Assembly: GCA_021081985.1 (NCBI GenBank)
Contig: GCA_021081985.1_3639.1
DNA: 64,000 nt
Strand: one strand, 5' to 3'
Origin: a phage
Made by a program: the position numbers and the translations under genes. The notes beneath the pieces are model-generated. The model was not told the DNA's origin, searched no databases, and was given only the letters and a program-made list of their open reading frames with translations. Below, in pieces: positions 26,012 to 53,789 of the stretch (position 1 is the stretch's first letter; each line of letters opens with the position of its first letter).

Positions 26012-27025
26012 ATGGCAGCAGTACAGACTAACGACTTTCAAATCGTAAACCTTGGCGCAGCACTGGAACTTGTTCCACGTCAGTATCGCCTGATTACCAA
26101 CATGGATCTGTTCACCGCTTACCATGGTGAAACCACAATTGCTCGTGTTGAGCGTGTTGACGAAATTGTTGCGGATATTCCTGCACGTCGTCGTGGTGGA
26201 GAACGTAACTATGTGGGTAGTGAAAAAGCTCAAATCAAGAACTTCAACATTCCGTTCTTCCCTCTGGATCGTCAGATCACTGCGGCAGATGTTCAGAACT
26301 TCCGTAAATATTTCACTACGGACGCTCCGAGAACTGTTGAAGACGTAGTTGCTCGCGTAGTTAAGCGTATTCGCGTTTCTCATGAACAACTGAAAGAAAA
26401 AGCAATGGTTCAGGCAATCATGGGTAAATCATGGTCTCCACAAGATCCGACCGCACAGTACAACTACTTTACCGAGTGGGGAGTTACCCAGCATACTGCC
26501 AATATCGACTTCACAGATGTCGCTGTTGACCCGTCTGATCTGATTGAAAAAGACGCTCGTGCATACATCATCGACAATGCAGGTGATAACGGCAATAACT
26601 ACAATATCATTGTTCTGGCTTCTCGTAAATGGTTCTCTGCTCTGATCGCCCATCCGCTGATCATGAATGCATACCAGTATTATTCTTCTACCCAAGAGCC
26701 GCTGCGTCGTCGTCTGGGTATGGGTTCTGAGAATGCCAACAACCGTATGTTTGTTCATAAGAACGTAACCTACATTGAAGACATCTCTGGATATATCCCA
26801 GATGGTGAAGCATACATCCTGCCGCAAGGTATTGATGATATGTTCCAGATCCACTATGCTCCGGCAGATGATGTTCGTGAAGCAAACACTGTAGCTGAAG
26901 AACTGTATCTGTGGTACAAATCTTCTGCATATCTGCGTGAAGAGAAAGTTGAATCTGAAACTTCCTTCTTGACGGTTAACACCCGTCCTGAACTGGTTGT
27001 GCGTTCTACTGGTACTTTCGCATAA
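26012..27025 (+). CDS. major capsid protein (lambda E-like)
   Basis: 337 aa, high codon-bias, strong RBS AAGGAGAA, followed by a strong terminator. Confidence 0.7.
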   Translation: MAAVQTNDFQIVNLGAALELVPRQYRLITNMDLFTAYHGETTIARVERVDEIVADIPARRRGGERNYVGSEKAQIKNFNIPFFPLDRQITAADVQNFRKYFTTDAPRTVEDVVARVVKRIRVSHEQLKEKAMVQAIMGKSWSPQDPTAQYNYFTEWGVTQHTANIDFTDVAVDPSDLIEKDARAYIIDNAGDNGNNYNIIVLASRKWFSALIAHPLIMNAYQYYSSTQEPLRRRLGMGSENANNRMFVHKNVTYIEDISGYIPDGEAYILPQGIDDMFQIHYAPADDVREANTVAEELYLWYKSSAYLREEKVESETSFLTVNTRPELVVRSTGTFA

Positions 27026-27666: not shown

Positions 27667-27693
27667 AATGTTTTTTTTTCAAGGAGTTAAGCA

Positions 27694-28947
27694 ATGACAG
27701 CAACAACAGGTGTTGGTGGTTTAATTTATGGTCGTGCATTGGTTGACCAGAAGACAGGAAAGAAAATAAATTTTGATGAACTGGGTGGCGGGAATATTCC
27801 AGAAGATATAACAGATCTTATTGCATCTAAAGCCCCAATAGAAAGCCCTTCATTTACAGGGAACCCTCAAGCACCAACACCGTTGGATGATGCTATTGGA
27901 AAGGAAATAGCTAATGTAGAATATGTGAGGGGTTTAATTGCAAAATTGGCTGACTCAGCGCCTGAAACATTGGATACTCTCAATGAATTAGCGAAGGCAT
28001 TAGGTGATGACCCTAACTTTGCGACAACCATAACTAACGCTCTTGCTGGTAAACAACCATTGAGTGAAATACTGACATCTTTGTCAGGATTGATTACTGC
28101 TGGAAATAAACTAGCTTATTTCAGTGATAAAAACGTAATGGCTTTGGCAAATCTCTCCGCTGTTGGTCGAGTTATCATAGGGCAAGACTCAAAAACTGGT
28201 GTTCTCGATTATCTGGGGATAAAAACCGCTGCCGCAAAAGATGTACAAAGGGATATCTACGATACCACAGAAGGGGTGGTATCTTTACCAGGGGCATTTG
28301 GTTTTGGTGCGTTTTTTCCTACGGAGAAAGAAGTTGTTTTTCAAGAGAAGAATGGGCCAGAGGAATGGGTTTCTTGGTTGAGAAGTGCACAACCTGGTCG
28401 CTACCTTGTTCGCCAAGATTTACCTTCAGGTGGCACACCTATTATTAAAGGGATTACTGCTTTCAAAGGTATGGTTGAGGTATTGTCACCATATCCAGCA
28501 GAGAATGCAGAGCAGGCAGCAAAAAATAGTAAACATGCCTATTTTTATGGCATAAATGGGGAGTTGTACCATTATCGCTTACTGACTATTTTTGCCAATG
28601 GTGACTGGGTGAATATAAAAGGGCAATTCTCTTCTTTGCAGTCTACGGTAGGCAATTCTTGGGGGAGTCCTGATGTTGGAGGAATAATGTTAGGAGTGTA
28701 TCTTGGCGCTTCAGACACTGATTCAAACAGAAAACTTGTTCGTGGTCAGACTATCCCAGGATCCCGCATAGGGTGTATAACTCTTTACAGCAAAGTTTCC
28801 GCAACAGGTGCATATCAAAGTACACCAGTTTCTGTTACACACAGTACTGAAACACAGAGAGGTACGTTTATAGCCTTATCCGGTTCACCAAGCAATAGTA
28901 ATGGTACTGATACAGGTTATATTGGCCTTTTTATGAGGATTGCATGA
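27694..28947 (+). CDS. tail fiber protein
   Basis: 417 aa; conserved fiber motif SPSFTGNPQAPTP...IANVEYV; N-terminus MTATTGVGGLIYGRALVD. Confidence 0.6.
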   Translation: MTATTGVGGLIYGRALVDQKTGKKINFDELGGGNIPEDITDLIASKAPIESPSFTGNPQAPTPLDDAIGKEIANVEYVRGLIAKLADSAPETLDTLNELAKALGDDPNFATTITNALAGKQPLSEILTSLSGLITAGNKLAYFSDKNVMALANLSAVGRVIIGQDSKTGVLDYLGIKTAAAKDVQRDIYDTTEGVVSLPGAFGFGAFFPTEKEVVFQEKNGPEEWVSWLRSAQPGRYLVRQDLPSGGTPIIKGITAFKGMVEVLSPYPAENAEQAAKNSKHAYFYGINGELYHYRLLTIFANGDWVNIKGQFSSLQSTVGNSWGSPDVGGIMLGVYLGASDTDSNRKLVRGQTIPGSRIGCITLYSKVSATGAYQSTPVSVTHSTETQRGTFIALSGSPSNSNGTDTGYIGLFMRIA

Positions 28948-29516
28948 TGCTAGATATTAAAGATATCAAGTCTCCACAGTATCTTCTTAATGGCGACGTT
29001 GATTGTCTGGTACTTTTTGATGGTTTTTCTGATTATCTTCCATACACCGCTTCCAGCAACGACTATAGTGAAACTGGGAAAGCAGTTTGGGATTCCTTAC
29101 AGTCTGGTAATTTTGGGGAGATTGCCCCGTATGTAGTAAACCCTCAATTTATCGAGGCATTAAAGCAACAGATGTTATCAGAAATAAAAGAGTGGAGAAA
29201 ACTGGAAGAAAGCTCTACAGCTATTGTTTCTTATAATGGTGCAAGGTATGATGTCAATAATGCAACCCTTGGTCGTATTTATCCAGTATTATTAGCACAA
29301 AAAGCATCCTCGGCTAGACAAGCTGTGGTTTGGAGAGATGTTGATAACAAACCTGTAGAGATGAGTAGCTCTGAATTTGAAAATCTTGTTGTAGCTATGT
29401 CTTCCGAGTTGGCAACTAAGAATGATTCAATATACATCAAGCAACGAGAAATGAAAGATCAAGTGCTTTCAGCCTCTACGGTTGAGGAATTACAAAGGAT
29501 AAAAATTGGGTGGTAG
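28944..29516 (+). CDS. hypothetical protein, fiber-associated
   Basis: 190 aa, overlapping start/stop with both neighbours. Confidence 0.4.
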   Translation: MMLDIKDIKSPQYLLNGDVDCLVLFDGFSDYLPYTASSNDYSETGKAVWDSLQSGNFGEIAPYVVNPQFIEALKQQMLSEIKEWRKLEESSTAIVSYNGARYDVNNATLGRIYPVLLAQKASSARQAVVWRDVDNKPVEMSSSEFENLVVAMSSELATKNDSIYIKQREMKDQVLSASTVEELQRIKIGW

Positions 29517-31297
29517 CTATGGATTATAAGGATAAAGTTGTCAATGCTGAAGTCATACTTCCAGATGGGCATAGTATTGGAGGATCAGGACTCCCAAGCC
29601 AATCTTTTAAATTATACACAGAAGACACCGCGACCATAAAACTTTCAGGTAATGGTGAAAAAGCAACACCACTTAAAGGTGTTGTTGTGGTGGCAGAAGA
29701 TGAAAATAATGCTCTCCAAGCTGGAGATAATGGGTTAGCTGTTAAGGTTAGCCCTGCTGCAAATAACCTGTTGGAGTTGAAACAAGGGGCATTATATGTA
29801 ACAGCGCCCGAAATAAATATCCCTATATCTCCTAAAGAAGGAAATGCTTTAACAAATCTGACTTCTGAAGGTGAAGAGGGGTTGTATGTTGCACCTACCA
29901 AAGTACAAGGATGGCTTTATGATCCTGCGCCTGGTGTTGCAGCTTTGCCTGGAGCTTTCGGCTACGGAATGACAAATCCTGGAGCAATTTCACTTATTGC
30001 TTACAGTCTTGGCGATGTTGCACGTTCTGCCCATAACCTACACCCAGGTAGGTATTATACTTTCACCACACGATCTGAGGAAATGACCGGAATAACAGAA
30101 ATTATCTGGCTGGATAATGGCTGGGGCGACAAAACCAGCCAGACAGCAACAAAGCTGGTTCTGTTTTTTGGAAAAGACGGTCGTATGAAGTATACAATCC
30201 GTGGCGACAATCCAAGGGAGCCAGCAGTGTGGTATGATTTGTTAACTGCCAAACAAGCGAATATTCATGATCGCACGGCTGGTGTTGCAGCCATACCGGG
30301 AAGTTTTGGGTACGGTATGGCAGCGAGCGATGGTGTCACCTTATCGTTGCTAAACATTGATGAGATCGCTTCTCTTGCTAATCAGACCATGCCGGGGAGG
30401 TATTATGCCCATATACAATTCCCAGCAAACTCTGGCGTATTTGAAATAATATGGCTAGATAATTGGCAAAATGATAAAACTTCAGCAACGGCAAGTAAAT
30501 TGATCTTGTTTTATGGCGCGGATGGTAGTGTTAAGTATACAATTAGAGGCTCAGACCCTAGTACCCCTGTTTCCTGGGTAGACCTTGGAGGAAGTTCTGC
30601 CACCTATTCACTATCTATCGGCACAGTTTCCTCTTTGGAAAGTGGGCAACAGGCAACCGCATCAATAACTGGTGATTCTCCTTCACAAGTTCTTAACTTA
30701 GGTATCCCTAAGGGTGCTGATGGACAAACAATAAAATCTGTTAATGCTGTTGTTAAAGAAATAGACAGTGCACAACAGGTAACACTGACTTTTACAATGA
30801 CAGATGATTTAAGTCAACAGGCGAGCTTTAATATCCCATTTTCTCCTCAGCCGACTATGAAGTTGTCAGCAACATCTGGGAATTTCTCTTTCAATTATAG
30901 CGATACACCTTCAGCGAAAAAAGCAGCGGGGAGATCTGGGTCTTCTATATATTTGAAAACAACAGTTGATCTGAACAGATCAACTGCTGGCAGTACAGAT
31001 GTTATGGTGGATGTTCGTTTGACAGAGATACCTTGTACGGAAGACGGTACGTATCTTGATTATGATATCTATGCAGAATACCCAAGTGTTGTCGGGTCAG
31101 GGCAACCCACAGTGGCTGTATGGCTTATTCTACCAACAGTTCCCACGCATACCATTGATCCCAAGACGAAGACAATAACTAAACTTCTTCGTGGTGATGG
31201 TTTATCAGGACTTAATGGAATCATTCCTATTGCAGGTGCAGACGAACAAGTCCACGAATTTAAATATTTCTTGCAATATTCTTATCTGAACAACTAA
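29510..31297 (+). CDS. tail fiber or structural protein with internal tandem domain duplication
   Basis: 595 aa; two ~100-aa repeats (ALPGAFGYGM...IIWLDNGWGDKTSQTATKL and AIPGSFGYGM...IIWLDNWQNDKTSATASKL). Confidence 0.5.
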   Translation: MVAMDYKDKVVNAEVILPDGHSIGGSGLPSQSFKLYTEDTATIKLSGNGEKATPLKGVVVVAEDENNALQAGDNGLAVKVSPAANNLLELKQGALYVTAPEINIPISPKEGNALTNLTSEGEEGLYVAPTKVQGWLYDPAPGVAALPGAFGYGMTNPGAISLIAYSLGDVARSAHNLHPGRYYTFTTRSEEMTGITEIIWLDNGWGDKTSQTATKLVLFFGKDGRMKYTIRGDNPREPAVWYDLLTAKQANIHDRTAGVAAIPGSFGYGMAASDGVTLSLLNIDEIASLANQTMPGRYYAHIQFPANSGVFEIIWLDNWQNDKTSATASKLILFYGADGSVKYTIRGSDPSTPVSWVDLGGSSATYSLSIGTVSSLESGQQATASITGDSPSQVLNLGIPKGADGQTIKSVNAVVKEIDSAQQVTLTFTMTDDLSQQASFNIPFSPQPTMKLSATSGNFSFNYSDTPSAKKAAGRSGSSIYLKTTVDLNRSTAGSTDVMVDVRLTEIPCTEDGTYLDYDIYAEYPSVVGSGQPTVAVWLILPTVPTHTIDPKTKTITKLLRGDGLSGLNGIIPIAGADEQVHEFKYFLQYSYLNN

Positions 31298-31307
31298 GGG
31301 GATAATT

Positions 31308-31565
31308 ATGGCAACAACAGGTGTGGCTGGTAAAGTATATGCATCAAGCCTTGTTGATATAAAAACTGGAAAATCTGTGAAAATCGAAGATATTATTGCT
31401 GGAGGCTCAGATAGCTATGTTCTTCCAGCGGCTACGGAATCAGTATTAGGAGGTGTTAAGAAAGCACAAACACAAGCAGATTCTGTGGCTTCAGATGTCT
31501 CTACGTTGGTCAACGATTTTAATGCTTTGCTTGCCAAGTTGAAAGCCGCTGGTATTATGTCGTGA
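31308..31565 (+). CDS. short fiber-like protein
   Basis: 85 aa; N-terminus MATTGVAGKVYASSLVDIKTGK parallels the N-terminus of the 27694 fiber. Confidence 0.4.
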   Translation: MATTGVAGKVYASSLVDIKTGKSVKIEDIIAGGSDSYVLPAATESVLGGVKKAQTQADSVASDVSTLVNDFNALLAKLKAAGIMS

Positions 31566-31570
31566 TAAAA

Positions 31571-31596
31571 AAGACCCTTCGGGGTCTTTTTATTTT
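31571..31596. terminator. bidirectional rho-independent terminator
   Basis: AAGACCC-ttcg-GGGTCTT with T-runs on both sides, between convergent genes. Confidence 0.75.
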
Positions 31597-31994
31597 AGGA
31601 GTTCCTGTACTCCTTTATTCAAATTTGCATTAATATACGGTTCACGCCCATTCTTATAGAAAGTACAGATGTATTTCCCAGTGTAAGATTTTTTTCCTGA
31701 GATAATTGCGACATCATCAAAATATTGATATGCTTCTGCTTGCTCTGCAATTCTGCCTTCAAAGCCTGATGACACAACAATCACGTCTGGTTTAAATGCT
31801 TCTCTGAATCTCTTATCGCAAGATAATTGTACAATACGGCTAATTGCCTCATCTTTTTCTTCTGGTGACAACCAACTTGCCTCGACAGATTTATAATCAT
31901 TAATGTCTGGGTTATTTTTCACATATTGGAGAGTCCCCGCTGCAATAACAGCACAGACGCACAGACCAATTGTAATTTTTAAAATATTTTTCAT
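31590..31994 (-). CDS. lipoprotein on opposite strand, candidate superinfection-exclusion protein
   Basis: 134 aa; signal peptide with Cys-containing lipobox region ITIGLCVCAVIAAG; only minus-strand gene inside the plus-strand tail module. Confidence 0.55.
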   Translation of the reverse strand: MKNILKITIGLCVCAVIAAGTLQYVKNNPDINDYKSVEASWLSPEEKDEAISRIVQLSCDKRFREAFKPDVIVVSSGFEGRIAEQAEAYQYFDDVAIISGKKSYTGKYICTFYKNGREPYINANLNKGVQELLK

Positions 31995-32121
31995 AAATCC
32001 TCCATAGCAGTTGTTGTGTTTATCTTACCTACGGAATTTTTCGTGTCAAGCGTTTTTAATGACAAAAATTGTATTTTGTGATAATATAGTTACTAACAAG
32101 TAACATAAAATGGAGAGTTAG

Positions 32122-34276: not shown

Positions 34277-35689
34277 ATGGCTTATAATGACAAGGTGGTT
34301 GATGTAACAGTCACACTTGGTACTCAACCAATCGACACAAAAGGGTTTGAAACCCCACTGTTCCTTGCGATCCATAATGTCTTCCCAGAAAGAGTTCGTG
34401 CTTATACCGAACTTAGTCAATTAGTTGATGATGGATTTGCTGTTGGAACACCTGCATATAATTATGCATCTAAGGCATTTTCTGGAACATTCCGTCCACA
34501 ATATCTGATGATTGGTCGCCAAGGCTTCACCAATACGGTTGTGGATTTTACAGACCAGACAAACACAGACCCAGAAACACCTGTAGCTCTAAACTTTGTG
34601 ACAGGGGCTTATCAAAAGAGCATACTTGTCAATGTAAATGCATCTTCAGAGCCTTCTACAATTGCTACATCTCTGGCTGACGCTATTAATGCGGATACAA
34701 CGCTGAAGACTGTACTTACGGCAACAGCAAGCGAGGCTAAAGTAACAATTGCCCCAAAAGATAGTGGCAAGTTTAGTGTTGGTAAAGACAGCGGAAATAT
34801 GGTCATCACCAATACCTCCGATGAGACAGTTTCTTCTGTTCTTCCGCAGGTTATGACCGCAAATGAGAACTGGTATTTTGTCAGCACTGAGTCACACACA
34901 AAAACATCTATCTTAAGTGCCGCCGCATTCGCCGCTGCAAATTACAAGATGCATGTCTACTCAACTGCGGATGAAAAATCTAAAACTGCTGATAGTGATT
35001 CCATCGCAGATGAACTGAAAGCTCTGCAATACGACACCTCTATTGGTATGTACGATCCGCTGGCAGACAGTGCCTATCCAGAAGGAGGAATTATCGGGGC
35101 GATGGCCTCAAATGATCCTTCCTATGGGGATTCTATCCACCTGAAGACTATGGACGGGGTTGTTGCTCCAACCTTGAGTGCAACGGAACGTATGACTATC
35201 TGGGGTAAGAATCTGAACTTCTACCGCATGATTAATGGTGTAGGATCCTTCTATGAAGGCAAATGCGCTTCCGGCAATTATGTAGATGTTGTGAGATTTG
35301 GTCACTGGCTTAAGTTCCGCACCGAAGAAAGTGTTTTCGGATATATGTCCCGCAGATCCAACATGGGCCTGTCTGTTAAAATGAGTGATGATGACCTCCC
35401 TAACCTGAAGTCTGTCATCATGAATAACCCTATCAACGTAGGTATTTCTAACGGAGCTATTTTAACAGGTTATGATGAGGTTAACAAGGTCTTCTTCGAC
35501 CCTGTAATCACAATCCCTCTGCGTGGAAGCATACCTACTAACGATCTGGCAGCACGTACACTTAACAACGTGAAAGTGGAACTGGTATACAACACACCAC
35601 TACATTTTGTCAAGATCCGTATGACTGTCATGCTGGACAAAACAGGTTCAAATTCTGGTAACGCACAGACAGTAACAGCAGGAGTGTAA
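34277..35689 (+). CDS. tail sheath protein
   Basis: 470 aa, followed by a ~150-aa tube-sized gene, chaperones and tape measure (PBSX/Mu-like order); by position and size. Confidence 0.5.
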   Translation: MAYNDKVVDVTVTLGTQPIDTKGFETPLFLAIHNVFPERVRAYTELSQLVDDGFAVGTPAYNYASKAFSGTFRPQYLMIGRQGFTNTVVDFTDQTNTDPETPVALNFVTGAYQKSILVNVNASSEPSTIATSLADAINADTTLKTVLTATASEAKVTIAPKDSGKFSVGKDSGNMVITNTSDETVSSVLPQVMTANENWYFVSTESHTKTSILSAAAFAAANYKMHVYSTADEKSKTADSDSIADELKALQYDTSIGMYDPLADSAYPEGGIIGAMASNDPSYGDSIHLKTMDGVVAPTLSATERMTIWGKNLNFYRMINGVGSFYEGKCASGNYVDVVRFGHWLKFRTEESVFGYMSRRSNMGLSVKMSDDDLPNLKSVIMNNPINVGISNGAILTGYDEVNKVFFDPVITIPLRGSIPTNDLAARTLNNVKVELVYNTPLHFVKIRMTVMLDKTGSNSGNAQTVTAGV

Positions 35690-47338: not shown

Positions 47339-48409
47339 ATGGCTACACCAAGTATACCAATCGAGATTTGGGCAGCGGGGGATGTAATTCTCCCTAATAC
47401 TCACGGGGAGAATAAAATAAGACCTATTGACGACCTTTGGTTAAAAGGTTGGGATATGGGAGAAAAACCAGCTTGTGAAGAATTTAACTATGTTCTTCAT
47501 ATGATGACAAGTTGGATAAAATATGTTACAGGGGATCAAATTCCTGAATTAGATACAAGATTTTTAAGAAGAAGTGAAAATCTGTCTGATTTAGCTGACA
47601 AGGAAACATCCAGAGTCAACCTTGATGTGTGGAGCAGATCAGAGGCCGATAACCGTTACGTGAATGTAACGGGAGATACAATGACAGGAGCTTTGTCATT
47701 GCCGAGGTTGAATTTTCAACCTTCTGAAACAGATACTGCGTATATCACAACTACAAATCCGGCTTCTGACTGGACGTACTGGGATTTTGTTCTTGGAGAT
47801 AATCCAGGAACAGCAGGGACAAACGGTGTAGATTCTATACGTTTCCGATTCTCTCCTTCAGGTAACTCTGGGATGTTCACTATGATGGAGCTTAATGCTA
47901 TTAGCTCCTCAGCGGCTTTGTGTAAAGTAACAGGAAATGTTGTTGCCACAGGCACTGTACAAGGAACTAATGTTAATGGCACAAATGCAACATTCACCAC
48001 AACAAGAACATCCTCTTTGACGGCTACAGGACAAATTCAAGGCCAAACTATTGTAGCAACAAGCTCATTAACAACACCATCTGCAAGAGTTAATGGAACA
48101 GCAAACGTAAATGCACTAATTGTAAATAATAACTCTGCTACGGTTGCCGGGAGAAATATCGTAAGATCTGTTAATGGTGTAGGTGCGGATGGTAACGGAA
48201 ATGTTAACTTACCAACAGGAAGTGTTCAGCAAATAAGACTTGGTAATCGTTTCTCTGCTGGGGTTGTTGAGTCTACGTTTTATCCTGGACATGTAATGAC
48301 TGGCTGGGCATTTGGTAATAAAAAGGAATTGAGAGGTGGTTCGTATTACACTGCTCCTTTGCAATATCTTGTGAATGGTCAATGGGTAACAGTGACAAAT
48401 TTAAACTAA
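47339..48409 (+). CDS. tail fiber protein
   Basis: 356 aa, Thr/Asn/Gly-rich repetitive C-terminal half. Confidence 0.5.
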   Translation: MATPSIPIEIWAAGDVILPNTHGENKIRPIDDLWLKGWDMGEKPACEEFNYVLHMMTSWIKYVTGDQIPELDTRFLRRSENLSDLADKETSRVNLDVWSRSEADNRYVNVTGDTMTGALSLPRLNFQPSETDTAYITTTNPASDWTYWDFVLGDNPGTAGTNGVDSIRFRFSPSGNSGMFTMMELNAISSSAALCKVTGNVVATGTVQGTNVNGTNATFTTTRTSSLTATGQIQGQTIVATSSLTTPSARVNGTANVNALIVNNNSATVAGRNIVRSVNGVGADGNGNVNLPTGSVQQIRLGNRFSAGVVESTFYPGHVMTGWAFGNKKELRGGSYYTAPLQYLVNGQWVTVTNLN

Positions 48410-48412
48410 GGG

Positions 48413-48964
48413 GTGCATATGTACAAGATCTATGGTAATTTTCAGCCTTACACACCTGAAAGAACAGAGTATAATTCGGCCTTCATAGATACAGGGGCAG
48501 GTTTCCTTAAAGATAGTGATGGCAGAGATTGGTATGAATTATCAAAAGAACTAGCTGATAACAAAGCGGAAAATCAAAAATTTTTGCTTCTGACTTCGGA
48601 TGATATAGTCCTCTGTGTCTCACAAGACCCGACCGCTTATTTTCCTTATGGAATGAAAATAGTAGTTATTGAGAATCTTACTGTAAACTTAGACCCTAAA
48701 CTCGGGCATATAAAATTTACAGATGGAGAATTTGTTGATTATAACAAAGAAGCGGTAGAACAAGCTCAATCAATTATAGAAACAGAAATGATGTGGGCTT
48801 CTAATCAAATCTCTACCTTGGAGGATATGATCTCTATGGGATTGGGAACAGAGAGTAGAAAAAAATATCTGGAAAAATTAAAAGAGTATCGCATAAAACT
48901 GTTTTCGTTAGACCCTGAAGAAGATATGGATATTTCTTTACCAGACAGACCTTCTAAAAAATAA
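48413..48964 (+). CDS. tail fiber assembly-like protein
   Basis: 183 aa directly after a fiber gene. Confidence 0.4.
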   Translation: MHMYKIYGNFQPYTPERTEYNSAFIDTGAGFLKDSDGRDWYELSKELADNKAENQKFLLLTSDDIVLCVSQDPTAYFPYGMKIVVIENLTVNLDPKLGHIKFTDGEFVDYNKEAVEQAQSIIETEMMWASNQISTLEDMISMGLGTESRKKYLEKLKEYRIKLFSLDPEEDMDISLPDRPSKK

Positions 48965-48975
48965 GGAGACAAGGA

Positions 48976-49290
48976 ATGTCTATTGACCTATTTGCTATCT
49001 TAAAAGCCGTATGGGGCGTTTTGACGTTTTTCTTAGTTGGTGTTCTGAAGTTAACATACTCAGACTATAAAAAGACACAGCAACGTCTTGATGAACTTGA
49101 TAGGGACATCATAAGAATTAAGGCAGAGATGGTCACTAAAGAGAAACTTGATGAGATTCTTGATAAAAAACTGAAAGCTGTCCGCGATGATGTTTCAGAT
49201 TTTAGAAAAGACTTAAAAGAGGATGTGAGCAGTTTGAGAGTTGATCTTATAGACCAGCTTAAAATTCTTATAGAGAGTCAAATGAAATGA
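48976..49290 (+). CDS. small membrane protein with coiled-coil
   Basis: 104 aa; N-terminal TM helix LFAILKAVWGVLTFFLVGVL then charged helix. Confidence 0.4.
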   Translation: MSIDLFAILKAVWGVLTFFLVGVLKLTYSDYKKTQQRLDELDRDIIRIKAEMVTKEKLDEILDKKLKAVRDDVSDFRKDLKEDVSSLRVDLIDQLKILIESQMK

Positions 49291-49760
49291 TAAGTTCTGC
49301 ACTGTACTTTATATGCTTTGCAGTGCTACTTCTCGATAATGATAAAGGGATCCGAGCCATGTCAGTATTTGGCATGGTTCATATCGTGGCAGAGAATATA
49401 TTATACTGGTGGTTCTGTTCCCATATCTACGCATTTGACTTGTCACTCTACCTAACCTTTTGTTGGTTCTTGGATATATCTCTGATTTTCTTTACTGCAT
49501 GTGCTTTGACAGGATGGAGAAAAAAGCTAATGCTTGCATTATCTCTTCCTGTTCTGTTTTGCCAAATTTTAGTTATGCAGTTCCCATTTATTTTACCAAG
49601 CGCATTAGGCTTCACGATAAATTCATCATATCCGACATTTATGGAAGCTCTTTTATTATGCGCCGCATACAAAAGCGGTACAATAAAAGAATTGCTTGAG
49701 ACTTCTGTTGTTGTTGGTTTCATAATTATAGCCAGAATTGTTCCTGGAGTAAATTATTGA
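49287..49760 (+). CDS. polytopic membrane protein
   Basis: 157 aa with about four hydrophobic segments. Confidence 0.45.
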   Translation: MISSALYFICFAVLLLDNDKGIRAMSVFGMVHIVAENILYWWFCSHIYAFDLSLYLTFCWFLDISLIFFTACALTGWRKKLMLALSLPVLFCQILVMQFPFILPSALGFTINSSYPTFMEALLLCAAYKSGTIKELLETSVVVGFIIIARIVPGVNY

Positions 49761-49775
49761 GGATTCTAATGTATT

Positions 49776-50039
49776 ATGCTAAAATCAATATTGAAATTTT
49801 TAAAAGATCTTGTCAGATCCCCAGTAAATCCAGAGAAGGCATCTCACACAAAATTTTGGAGTAATATCGGATTAGCTGCAATGACAGCAGTTTTTTTAGA
49901 TTGGGGTTTCAAAGGCACATTAACGGAGTGGTATATGTGGGTGTATGCCCCCACAGTAGCTGCCCCGCAGTTAATAAGTAAGTTAATATCTCTACGTTGG
50001 GGTGTAGAAGCACAACGTAGGGAAGAGTCAGACCAATAA
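49776..50039 (+). CDS. small membrane protein
   Basis: 87 aa with one hydrophobic segment. Confidence 0.35.
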   Translation: MLKSILKFLKDLVRSPVNPEKASHTKFWSNIGLAAMTAVFLDWGFKGTLTEWYMWVYAPTVAAPQLISKLISLRWGVEAQRREESDQ

Positions 50040-50049
50040 GGAGATTCTT

Positions 50050-51804
50050 GTGGCAGACATGACTAAATTTGAACAGGCGGTCGATCAGGTTGTAGAAGAT
50101 TCTGAACGCCTTCATAAAGTTGTCAATGGAGCAGCTACTGAAACTGTAGTTACAGAGGATGGCAGTCTGATACCTACAGTCAGAAAAGCATTTCTTGACA
50201 ATTTATTCTTTAAAACACCTCCACTGCCGTGGGTTGCTGGACAACAGACGACGGTATTTAATCAGTTGTATGCCTATACAGGGGAAAGAGGTGTCCAATG
50301 GTGGTATGCACCCGGTGCGACAGAGAGTTCGCCTGTAACACTACCTCCTAATCCAGTCAATAATGTTAACTGGAGATTATACAACGATTTAGAATCTATG
50401 TCTCAGCTATTTGCGCCTATTGACAGCCCTATTTTTACAGGGAACCCTCAAGCACCAACACCATCAGCGGATAGTAACAGTACAACTCTGGCAACAACAC
50501 AATTCGTTACTAGAGCTATTGCTACTGCTTTGGCTGGAATTGCGGGTGGCAACGGTACATTCGCGGATCTTACTGTAACAGGTTTAGCGAGTCTTAATAC
50601 GCTTTCTGTTGGCGGTGTGTCAACATTTAATGGGCCTGTTAATGCTGAAAATCAAACAGGAAAATTCCAGAATCTTATCTTAACAAAAGATAATTCAAGT
50701 CTATCTTTTGCCTACAGTGATGATTCTAACCCGACGTTTATAAAAACAAGGCTTGAAGCATACTCAGCGCAGACACATCAGTTACATACAGACATCATCA
50801 TAAACGGTGTGCCAGTAGCAGACAATACAACAATGTCTTTCACAGGTCTTGGTAATAATACCTTCGACTATGTTTACATTACAGGTAACTCTAAAAAAGA
50901 CCCTTCTGAAGCTCGTCTTAAAGTCTTTGGGATGACAGAACTTGAAAACTTAAAGATCACAGGTACTGTAACAGGACTTTCTTTTTCTGTCAATGGGGAA
51001 GATATCTCGCCTAATTCTGTAACAACGGCACAAGGGGTTACTGTAGGTGGTGATTTACAAGTCAATGGTAACACCAATCTCAACAGTACAACATGTGAGA
51101 GCTTAGAAGTTACTAACAACCTTGTTGTTAATGGACAAGCCAGCCTCAAAGATTTCTCCTCTACAACTGGTAATGTCACAGGGCTATTAACTTTGGGGGA
51201 GGGATTTACTGCTACTGGCGACGGGTCTGTAGGCGGTGATCTAACTGTCAACGGAACTTCAACCCTTGGTAAGATAATATCTGATGGCGATGTGACTTTA
51301 AATAGATCTTCTGGCACAACAACAGTAAACAATTTGGTTGTTAAGGGGACTGTATCTGGTATTACGTTTGATTTGACAGGACAAAACGTAAACGTAGCAT
51401 CTCTTTCTGCTCAAAGCAGTGTAACAACAAATCAGTTATTTGTTAACGGCCAGGCACAACTTTCTTCCACCAATGTAAGTTTTCTAACTTTACAATCGGA
51501 AGAGGTTGACGATCCAACAGCAACATGGACACCAAGCGGCACATCCAACATTTATAATATCACAGTGAATAAAAATCTGACAATCGGAGCATGGCCTGAT
51601 CCACAGCAACCTTTCTCCGCTATGATTTATCTGACGCAGGATGCCACAGGTGGACACAGTGTGATTCTGGATCCTAATTATGTTGTCCTTAACAGCGAAA
51701 CTGTTAATACAGCAGCAAATTCAGTTACCATCCTTCAATTAACCTTTAACGGTGTTGAAGATGGGGTTGTTGACACCATTATTGTCCGTAGACCACAACC
51801 ATAA
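50050..51804 (+). CDS. tail fiber protein
   Basis: 584 aa; fiber motif SPIFTGNPQAPTP...LATTQFV; Thr/Gly/Asn-rich beta-repeat C-terminal half. Confidence 0.6.
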   Translation: MADMTKFEQAVDQVVEDSERLHKVVNGAATETVVTEDGSLIPTVRKAFLDNLFFKTPPLPWVAGQQTTVFNQLYAYTGERGVQWWYAPGATESSPVTLPPNPVNNVNWRLYNDLESMSQLFAPIDSPIFTGNPQAPTPSADSNSTTLATTQFVTRAIATALAGIAGGNGTFADLTVTGLASLNTLSVGGVSTFNGPVNAENQTGKFQNLILTKDNSSLSFAYSDDSNPTFIKTRLEAYSAQTHQLHTDIIINGVPVADNTTMSFTGLGNNTFDYVYITGNSKKDPSEARLKVFGMTELENLKITGTVTGLSFSVNGEDISPNSVTTAQGVTVGGDLQVNGNTNLNSTTCESLEVTNNLVVNGQASLKDFSSTTGNVTGLLTLGEGFTATGDGSVGGDLTVNGTSTLGKIISDGDVTLNRSSGTTTVNNLVVKGTVSGITFDLTGQNVNVASLSAQSSVTTNQLFVNGQAQLSSTNVSFLTLQSEEVDDPTATWTPSGTSNIYNITVNKNLTIGAWPDPQQPFSAMIYLTQDATGGHSVILDPNYVVLNSETVNTAANSVTILQLTFNGVEDGVVDTIIVRRPQP

Positions 51805-51808
51805 TATA

Positions 51809-51835
51809 AAAGGCCACAGCAGTGGCCTTTGTTTT
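51809..51835 (+). terminator. rho-independent terminator
   Basis: AGGCCAC-agca-GTGGCCT followed by TTGTTTT. Confidence 0.65.
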
Positions 51836-51845
51836 AGGAGGATTA

Positions 51846-53789
51846 ATGTATCCAATTCCTTGTTTTTATATCATAATTTCCAATAACCCTCTAGCCAACT
51901 CCATTTCCTTAACCTCCCTCGGTACGTGTCTTAAAGGAGGCAAAGCACAATTAATATGGTCTGTTGTGCCGGAAGGTGCAGACTTGCATGATATAACATT
52001 TACACCAGACAAACCGACGATTGTATCTGTTGATCCTACGGGGCTAGTATCTTTTCTTGAAGATGGTGATTTTATCATTACAATGTCTGCAAAGACTGGC
52101 AAAGGAGACGAAGAAAAGACCTTAACAGCGCAAATCAATGGTCATATCGATACACTACGCATTGATGTTGATCCTATAGGCAGCAGAAGCATTAATGATA
52201 GATTCTGGTTTGTCTACAAAGGCGACCCGTCTTTTGACCCAAGCAATCCGAATCCGAATATGATTGGCTTTAACATCTCTCCAGCAGAAGTTATGGAGGA
52301 GGATGACTTTTATGTCACCGCAGTTTCTGAAACACCTGATATATTAAGTCTGGCTCCTAGTGGTATCATCACATGTGTTAGTAAAGGTGTTGGGCATTGT
52401 GGTATGAAAGGAACCTATAAGGATGTGACAGTAACGACACTTACCGATGTATATGTAGATATAGCACCACAACTTATAAATCCGACTGCTGTAGCCAACA
52501 GTTATGGTGACGTTAAGATAGCGTGGGATGTTCAATTTCCCTCCTTGGATGATATTTATACCGTAGAGGTTTATGATTCTGAAGGGATGGAGGTTGTGTG
52601 GAGTAAGAAAACCAAAGACACATTCGTATTCTTTGATGTTACAGAATCAGTGCCTATCTTTGGATTTGCCCCTACATATCTTAAAGTGGTCATCAAAGGA
52701 TCAGATCCAGAAACACAACCTATATCTTTTAATAATAATGTAACTGTTGACGACTCTTTTGTTAAAGAGGTGCTTGTTTTTGCTGGCGGTGATAACGCAG
52801 CAGCACATTTTAACTCTTTTTCTGGTAGGGATAAAACAAGCCAAAGTGCAACCGTAGCACGTAATGAGTATGCTCTTAGCAAAGGGTTTTACCCAGCAGA
52901 AGTATTACCAATCAATGCCGCATTCATTACATCTTGTGCAGAAGCACAGGCAAACTCCTCTACAGGGTTAGCCACAAATTACTGGTATGACGTTAGTTCC
53001 TCCACAGCAGGTCCGTGTCTAACACAATTCCTTGCGAAGGTTAAACCTTATAAGGATAAAATTAAGGCTGTTTTCTGGTCGTTAGGGGAACAAGATGCCA
53101 TGGTAGCAGCAGCAAAACAGGAGGGGAAACATAGCGATGATGCTCGTTTTCAGACTGCTATGACCGCCATCTTTGAAAATATCCGATCTGTTATCACAAA
53201 TCCTGAAGCTAAGATTGTATTGCAGACACTTGGTAGATGCTTTGATGATAGTGTGGAAGTAGGTGGTGTTGAGTGGTATCGTTATAGAAGTATTCAACAA
53301 CAGTTAGTGGTAGATTCCGGGGGTGAGGTTATAATTGGCTCTTGGGTTGATGGTGCTGAACACTATGGCAATTATGTTGTTTCAGGGGCAGGTGATGGTT
53401 TAAGAATACAGTACCGACCAACAATTTATAAGAATGCCGCAGTATCCTTGGCTAACATGGAGGACTTGTCGAACACACCTCCTGTTTGGGTGGATATGAA
53501 AGTTCCCATGGGAGGAAAGGCAGTAAGGCAAGCAAACCAGGATATTCTTTTATCATGGGATACCAGAGGCTACAACAAGTTCTTTCTTGTTAACTTTGAT
53601 GTCCTGACAGGGGCTGTTATATCCCAACAAACATTGACCACCAATAGTTACACATTTACCTACGCAGATCAAGTAAAACAATACGGGTATGCTGCGGGTA
53701 CAGTTTTGTTTGGTGTTGCATATGTTCAAACAACCAGTAAAGGTGATATTACATCTCCGTTGGCGAAATTCAGTATCAATGTAGCGTGA
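51846..53789 (+). CDS. tail-associated protein, possible C-terminal esterase-like domain
   Basis: ORF track 51822..53789; start moved to ATG after RBS AGGAGG. C-terminal half has VFAGGDN...DGAEHY, loosely SGNH-esterase-like. Confidence 0.45.
   Translation: MYPIPCFYIIISNNPLANSISLTSLGTCLKGGKAQLIWSVVPEGADLHDITFTPDKPTIVSVDPTGLVSFLEDGDFIITMSAKTGKGDEEKTLTAQINGHIDTLRIDVDPIGSRSINDRFWFVYKGDPSFDPSNPNPNMIGFNISPAEVMEEDDFYVTAVSETPDILSLAPSGIITCVSKGVGHCGMKGTYKDVTVTTLTDVYVDIAPQLINPTAVANSYGDVKIAWDVQFPSLDDIYTVEVYDSEGMEVVWSKKTKDTFVFFDVTESVPIFGFAPTYLKVVIKGSDPETQPISFNNNVTVDDSFVKEVLVFAGGDNAAAHFNSFSGRDKTSQSATVARNEYALSKGFYPAEVLPINAAFITSCAEAQANSSTGLATNYWYDVSSSTAGPCLTQFLAKVKPYKDKIKAVFWSLGEQDAMVAAAKQEGKHSDDARFQTAMTAIFENIRSVITNPEAKIVLQTLGRCFDDSVEVGGVEWYRYRSIQQQLVVDSGGEVIIGSWVDGAEHYGNYVVSGAGDGLRIQYRPTIYKNAAVSLANMEDLSNTPPVWVDMKVPMGGKAVRQANQDILLSWDTRGYNKFFLVNFDVLTGAVISQQTLTTNSYTFTYADQVKQYGYAAGTVLFGVAYVQTTSKGDITSPLAKFSINVA

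Follow-up and report, generated by a model that had tools for sequence, protein, structure and literature searches.

Two adjacent predicted knob-like units in a fibre protein of a Vequintavirinae-type phage

The 64,000-nucleotide stretch of phage DNA that we analysed (hereafter, the window) encodes a fibre protein, p595, composed of a conserved N-terminal anchor, two adjacent knob units of the related types A1 and A2, and a C-terminal module that is beta-rich and likewise conserved. The repeated unit represents a new and narrow sequence family, without curated model, within an already known structural kind. We consider it likely that each unit is a modular knob of a trimeric fibre, that the pair was brought together by cassette exchange, and that the knobs serve as nodes of trimerisation and folding, as spacers and as lateral contacts. 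The p595 knob pair is real but ordinary, of the kind expected from the modular evolution of phage fibres.

The window belongs, on its sequence, to a Vequintavirinae-type, rV5-like myophage of E. coli. Its DNA is ~93% identical to that of the Escherichia phages vB_EcoM_TH18, 18-1-2, 19-1-2, and 24-2-1, and the DNA identity between the region and Av-05 (Vequintavirinae, Avunavirus) is 92.5%, with synteny from the fibre genes through the neck and sheath genes. The fibre region starts with the major capsid protein gene (26012-27025), followed by a gene for a 169-aa protein, the neighbouring fibre gene f417 (27694-28947, forward strand, 417 aa; PHROG 2636, E 1e-84), a gene for a 190-aa DUF4376 protein (28944-29516, forward strand; Pfam PF14301, E 6e-11; PHROG 1141) and p595 itself (29510-31297, forward strand, as given in the list of open reading frames). 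The latter had been described in the initial annotation as a tail protein, in agreement with its match to PHROG 2636 ('tail fiber', E 3e-20), which identifies it as a virion protein of the fibre type. Downstream lie genes for an 85-aa protein resembling the C-terminus of the phi29 head fibre (31308-31565; PF11133, E 2e-17) and for a small membrane/lipoprotein-like protein (31590-31994, reverse strand; phrog_11434, category 'moron/host takeover'), then those for the neck proteins, sheath (34277-35689), tube, tape measure, and baseplate; further fibre genes occupy 47339-53789. The reverse-strand gene interrupts a structural module whose other genes all run in one direction. The N-terminal ~80 residues of the 85-aa protein are shared with f417 (27694-27950; 28.6% identity, E 9e-8), which suggests a common attachment segment. 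Since the fibre cluster is located between the capsid and neck genes, its products may be attached to the neck or head and not to the baseplate; in the case of p595, both its position beside the capsid gene and its head-fibre-like neighbour hint at a possible location on the neck or capsid. Abundant virion proteins are encoded in the corresponding syntenic slot of phage W70 (PMC11370258).

Translation of p595 from the GTG at 29510 gives 595 aa and from the ATG at 29519, located two bases past the stop codon of the upstream DUF4376 gene (TAG 29514-29516), 592 aa; the ATG is probably the start codon, since MDYKD opens all orthologues. Four parts can be distinguished, all of them on the forward strand. 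The N-terminal module (aa 1-129, 29510-29896), near-invariant in 20 orthologues and with a weak match to phrog_3904, is presumed to be the virion-attachment part. It is followed by knob unit 1 (type A1, aa 133-245, 29906-30244), delimited by self-alignment and HMM, by knob unit 2 (type A2, aa 249-360, 30254-30589), and by the beta-rich C-terminal module (aa 361-595, 30590-31294), which is almost invariant among orthologues and for which PDB and Pfam searches gave no match. Residues 5-129 are 50-54% identical to the 'tail fiber' N-termini of PVP-SE1-like Salmonella, Cronobacter, and Enterobacter phages (tblastn). This shared N-terminus and the synteny place p595 in the capsid-adjacent fibre group of the Vequintavirinae (PVP-SE1 gp69/Av-05 gp78); the window has its major capsid gene upstream in the syntenic fibre region, and the position in the Av-05 group is between the major capsid and neck genes. 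The p595 orthologue in TH18/18-1-2 is 93% identical, with values of 86.5%, 90.3%, 99.1%, and 96.6% for the four parts from N- to C-terminus. The first of these values is due to two discrete allelic forms that aa 18-50 of the N-terminal module (29560-29660) take among the orthologues, DGHSIGGSGLPSQSFKLYTEDTATIKLSGNGEKA and NGYSIDTSGGTLGDKFKLHTEDTLTLKLLGDGGEA. Identity to Av-05 is 73% over 98% of the length (tblastn), across the split gp78/gp79: that orthologue is annotated as two CDS of 545 and 115 aa (Av05_0078/0079; L001, 4010-5978) and shows what looks like a frameshift close to the C-terminal module. The window gene is intact.

The initial annotation proposed that a domain of ~100 aa is tandemly repeated in this protein, and our alignments bear this out with units of ~113 aa. 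Residues 133-245 and 249-360, between which lies a linker of 3 residues, gave an alignment of 112 positions with one gap, 47% identity, and 64% positives (BLASTP E 1e-36). Their Smith-Waterman score is 274, whereas shuffling one partner 1000 times gave 28.9 +/- 5.1 (z = 48). The similarity runs along the whole unit instead of being limited to short low-complexity stretches, and all the motifs originally quoted for it were found (LPGxFGYGM, PGRYY, IIWLDN, DKTSxTAxKL, KYTIRG). At the DNA level, the two repeats are alike only in short patches of 67-75% identity. A diverged third copy, also anticipated in the neighbouring fibre, was recovered in f417 (aa 185-309, 28246-28620, forward strand) directly before the fibre tip, both by BLASTP (E 2e-8) and by an HMM built from the two p595 repeats alone (E 8e-7), and could be aligned along the full unit. 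An HMM scan covering all six frames of the window detected these three copies and no others.

The alignments reveal two unit types: a compact type A of ~113 aa and a longer and more variable type B of ~117-125 aa, to which the f417 copy belongs. Common to both are the leader Q-x-x-I-Y-D-R-T-x-G-x-x-A-x-P-G-x-F-G-x-G, the motif P-G-R-Y, a glycine before strand 3, K-x-x-x-F-Y-G, and a late tryptophan. In a tree of 106 units, type A comprises two sister clades, A1, in which repeat 1 is joined by the first unit found in prophage fibres of the Rac type, and A2, containing repeat 2 and units of the proteins P0005, P0011, and P0166. Type A also possesses a near-invariant loop, E-I-I-W-L-D-N-x-W-x-D-K-T-S-x-T-A-T-K-L, between predicted strands 3 and 4 (~30120-30185, p595 aa ~197-218, in unit 1; ~30470-30530, aa ~312-332, in unit 2). 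This loop, a candidate functional site, is absent from type B and is kept in type A even at an overall identity of only 43-48%.

Among Pfam, NCBIfam, and PHROG, the only model covering the repeat unit was PHROG 2636 ('tail fiber protein'), with no matching model in the other two libraries. Sequence searches of the PDB with p595 (phmmer) and with the search profiles A2 and A4 left both the repeat and p595 without a significant match; weak matches of profile A4 to Internalin K and LHCI were dismissed because they involved short motifs only (PGxYxV, GRLAxxGxFGF). A phmmer search of the PDB with f417 gave no match inside its knob unit. Outside it, 9D93 ('Tail collar fibers, gp4') was matched by the collar segment (aa 55-148, E 2.5e-12); a further match, between the distal residues 319-386 and 7ona, a designed repeat protein (E 1.8e-5), is probably spurious. 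Literature searches returned only unrelated papers for PDB 9D93 and nothing relevant on the structure of StfR/Rac fibres.

When 1.84 billion cluster representatives were scanned in full by HMMER, a profile of 13 units yielded 119 matches at E <= 1e-3, 79 of which at E <= 1e-10; ~85 cover most of the unit. Weak multi-stretch matches (E 1e-9 to 1e-3) that involved only ~35 profile positions around PGRY were not counted. Each protein contains one to three copies, and the named carriers are fibres of Escherichia and Salmonella phages and prophages. Searches with the whole protein retrieved ~20 orthologues in related phage contigs and hundreds of ~1035-aa Escherichia/Salmonella proteins described as 'prophage tail fiber N-terminal domain-containing' (PF08400, PF13620, PF03406). 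A word-indexed search added short partial E. coli proteins from contigs of a few hundred bases, of which those bearing the unit are fragments of prophage fibres. Many NCBI records of prophage tail fibres (P0001, P0003, P0006, P0067, P0077, and others) carry the name 'shikimate transporter', which looks like a propagated annotation error. Eight columns are invariant in the 13-unit alignment (Q, D, four G, P, Y) and six in the 57-unit alignment A4, to which the columns conserved at 90% add A, R, W, and K. The unit defines a compact domain family outside the curated libraries that marks exchangeable cassettes in the fibres of rV5-like phages and lambdoid prophages.

The AlphaFold model of full-length p595 (46-row alignment, mean pLDDT 43) was usable only in the knob cores, both of which reached pLDDT 68-81 with an identical order of secondary-structure elements; the C-terminal module was predicted with low confidence. 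Modelled separately, repeat 2 (aa 246-363, 57-row alignment) gave a pLDDT of 77.5 and a pTM of 0.67, with a core at 84-91. This model contains seven strands, four of them main ones (6-9 residues) and three shorter, as well as a single helix of seven residues. The unit starts with a strongly conserved linker, followed by a predicted beta-alpha-beta4 core. The first 30 residues are poorly defined in this monomer prediction (pLDDT 46-59), which would be compatible with their engagement in inter-chain contacts. Structural matches to the repeat 2 model (entry and score in brackets) were the Mu fibre (8ju3, 6.0), AS12 gp42 (6eu4, 6.0), two phi812 receptor-binding proteins (9euf, 5.8), phi11 gp45 (5efv, 5.7), R2 pyocin PA0620 (6cl6, 5.6), an Acinetobacter tailspike (24qi, 5.1), an R2-type pyocin fibre (6cu2, 5.0), T4 gp34 (5nxh, 4.5), Pa193 gp47 (9b45, 4.4), and phage K gp144 (5m9f, 4.1). 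Foldseek found no significant match in the PDB, where the same fibre proteins ranked best; among predicted viral structures it retrieved the Av-05 orthologue (E 7e-9), a 'tail fiber repeat protein' of Goslar (E 3e-5), and, at lower ranks, mostly fibre proteins.

The knob domain, defined on R1/R2 pyocin fibres and with relatives in phi11 gp45, K gp144, and T4 gp34, consists of five or six antiparallel strands in a sheet and of loops that include a six-residue helix (PMC6116203). The predicted fold of our unit, a 5-6-stranded antiparallel beta-sheet with surface loops and an optional short helix, is of this class, and so is its embedding, as one to three copies in phage and prophage fibres, two of them adjacent in p595. 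Searches of Pfam and NCBIfam, and of the PDB with single sequences and profiles, detected no homologue among solved or curated knob domains. On the basis of the models, we therefore assign the unit to the knob-like structural class with moderate confidence, as a member by predicted structure and not at the sequence level.

Our orthologue set contained 20 proteins sharing the p595 N-terminal anchor, plus P0064 and P0065, in which an f417-type N-terminus is joined to a p595-type C-terminal module. The N-terminal 129 and C-terminal ~235 residues are almost invariant, and the centre varies. The majority of orthologues carry one B unit and, behind it, a collar (KAPLxxPxFTGTPxxPTPSDSAxGTQIANVEFVKKQ). 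A1, B, and collar occur in Av-05 and in three relatives from metagenomes (P0046-48), whose unit 1 is the same as in the window; only the window and TH18 have A1 and A2 without collar. Elsewhere, in the A-containing fibres that we examined in detail (Rac-SA53 tail3, Av-05, P0001, P0005, P0011, P0165, P0166, and P0169), A is followed by B, so that the succession of two A units occurs in the window/TH18 lineage only. Comparison with Av-05 by blastn delimited the exchanged segment: DNA identity is 94% over 27671-30317, disappears over 30318-30664 (forward strand), where Av-05 has the B-type unit and collar, and returns at 89% over 30665-31996. The 5' breakpoint falls inside the conserved leader of repeat 2. 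Knob cassettes were probably exchanged between fibre genes, a process in which the conserved unit ends, the leader among them, would have supplied the homology.

We favour, as a likely explanation, that the knobs would act as trimeric beads that nucleate folding and also as spacers, and that their variable loops would offer lateral, exchangeable contact surfaces. The central cassette might then tune host specificity between constant termini, as proposed for Knob2 of the R-type pyocins. In the R-pyocin fibres, the sheets of the knobs lie buried at the trimer axis, with the loops making up the surface. Knob2, the most diverse part, has been proposed to influence the killing spectrum more strongly than the lectin foot at the C-terminus, which is near-invariant (PMC6116203, PMC11871291). 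Should the p595 cassette indeed tune host range with fixed termini, it would provide a handle to engineer fibre specificity in the broad-host-range Vequintavirinae.

Carbohydrate binding, already envisaged in the initial annotation, is plausible for these knobs by analogy. Knobs are present in fibres that bind saccharides, and a contribution of the R-pyocin Knob2 to LPS binding has been suspected (PMC6116203), which makes the idea reasonable, and Vequintavirinae have been reported to use ECA and the LPS core as receptors (PMC8594841), which makes glycan binding a fair analogy. It is possible, though in our opinion doubtful, that the unit is a true carbohydrate-binding module whose copies would bind LPS, O-antigen, or ECA, with two of them conferring avidity or dual specificity. 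This would agree with the reported glycan receptors, with knob-like domains being characteristic of fibres and spikes that bind saccharides and Knob2 being implicated in LPS recognition (PMC6116203, PMC11871291), and with the knob cassette being the variable part of the orthologue set; the type-A loop could then be a conserved ligand site. Nevertheless, profile searches for binding folds matched no carbohydrate-binding module or lectin family to the repeat by sequence, and structure prediction returned a fibre knob-like fold without a match to a known fold of either kind.

An explanation at the other extreme, which also seems rather unlikely to us, is that the unit is a purely structural bead and recombination linker that sets fibre length and stiffness and nucleates trimer folding, its ends providing the homology for shuffling. 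The invariant residues, which are glycines, proline, and aromatics, would fit this role, as would the proposal that knob domains aid trimer folding (PMC6116203), the Av-05 breakpoint inside a conserved motif, and the hybrid architecture of P0064 and P0065. However, it leaves unexplained the strong cassette variation between otherwise near-identical genes as well as the invariant 20-residue loop of type-A sequences that have otherwise diverged widely. We regard as improbable a more far-reaching possibility, that the type-A knob is an undescribed glycan module for a conserved enterobacterial sugar, with side-on specificity and perhaps in a neck or capsid fibre. If true, specificity would be set by the exchangeable central knobs and not by the conserved C-terminal tip.

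Modular knobs joined by cassette exchange also account for the origin of the pair. The initial annotation spoke of an internal tandem duplication; the adjacency of two related units stands, whereas their origin in place is contradicted by the tree, the orthologues, and the break in DNA homology with Av-05. Repeat 1 is 71% identical (aa) to an A1 unit of prophage fibres and repeat 2 62% to the unit of P0005, well above the 48% between them. Outside the TH18 group, repeat 1 is most closely related to units in the side tail fibres of Rac-type prophages, and it has 78-81% nucleotide identity to prophage fibre genes in 41 of the 5426 complete E. coli genomes searched, among which repeat 2 had no DNA-level relative. 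We therefore rejected, on the tree and orthologue evidence, the very improbable alternative that unit 2 was recently copied from unit 1 in place and then diverged: despite the short linker between the units, their common A clade, and the tandem knobs of R-pyocins, which are thought to derive from duplication (PMC6116203), the DNA of the two units is alike in patches only, and Av-05 and P0046-48 combine unit 1 with a B-type unit, and most orthologues have a B-type unit only. The best reading is that the pair consists of two old paralogous cassettes joined by recombination.

Compared with known systems, the Rac-type side tail fibres (~1035 aa) are true homologues of the unit. Rac-SA53 tail3 contains three, A1, B, and B' (aa 414-525, 538-638, and 811-884). 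Unlike these fibres, p595 has no PF08400 N-terminus, coiled coil, or PF03406 collar repeats, and it ends in another C-terminal module; in Pfam searches, PF08400 and PF03406 were both found in the prophage homologues sharing the unit and not in p595, which is therefore not a lambdoid Stf/StfR fibre. As to the neighbouring genes, f417 (residues 6-417) is 36% identical to Rac-SA53 tail3 (aa 630-1061), and the DUF4376 protein is 40.5% identical over its full length to tail4, encoded by the gene after tail3, the counterpart of the pair lying at L002, 2858-6606. The DUF4376 protein is probably the fibre-assembly partner of f417, and this homology implies that a fibre tip and an assembly-type partner are common to a virulent myophage and lambdoid prophages. 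Another related system is the tail fibre gpS of phage Mu (distal region, PDB 8JU3) with its assembly protein; no sequence homology was found here, and p595 itself is not followed by a chaperone gene of that kind.

A close structural system is the Knob1/Knob2 pair of the R-type pyocins (PA0620; PDB 6CL6, 6CL5, 6CU2), together with phi11 gp45, K gp144, and T4 gp34. The 'Pyocin knob' has been recognised by RBPseg as a mobile pseudo-domain across fibre classes (PMC12143355). In R-pyocin fibres, Knob1 and Knob2 stand in tandem and, like these fibres, p595 combines constant ends with a variable mid-fibre knob cassette. If that cassette does tune specificity, p595 would be the second example, after the R-pyocins, of specificity conferred by knobs in the middle of a fibre.
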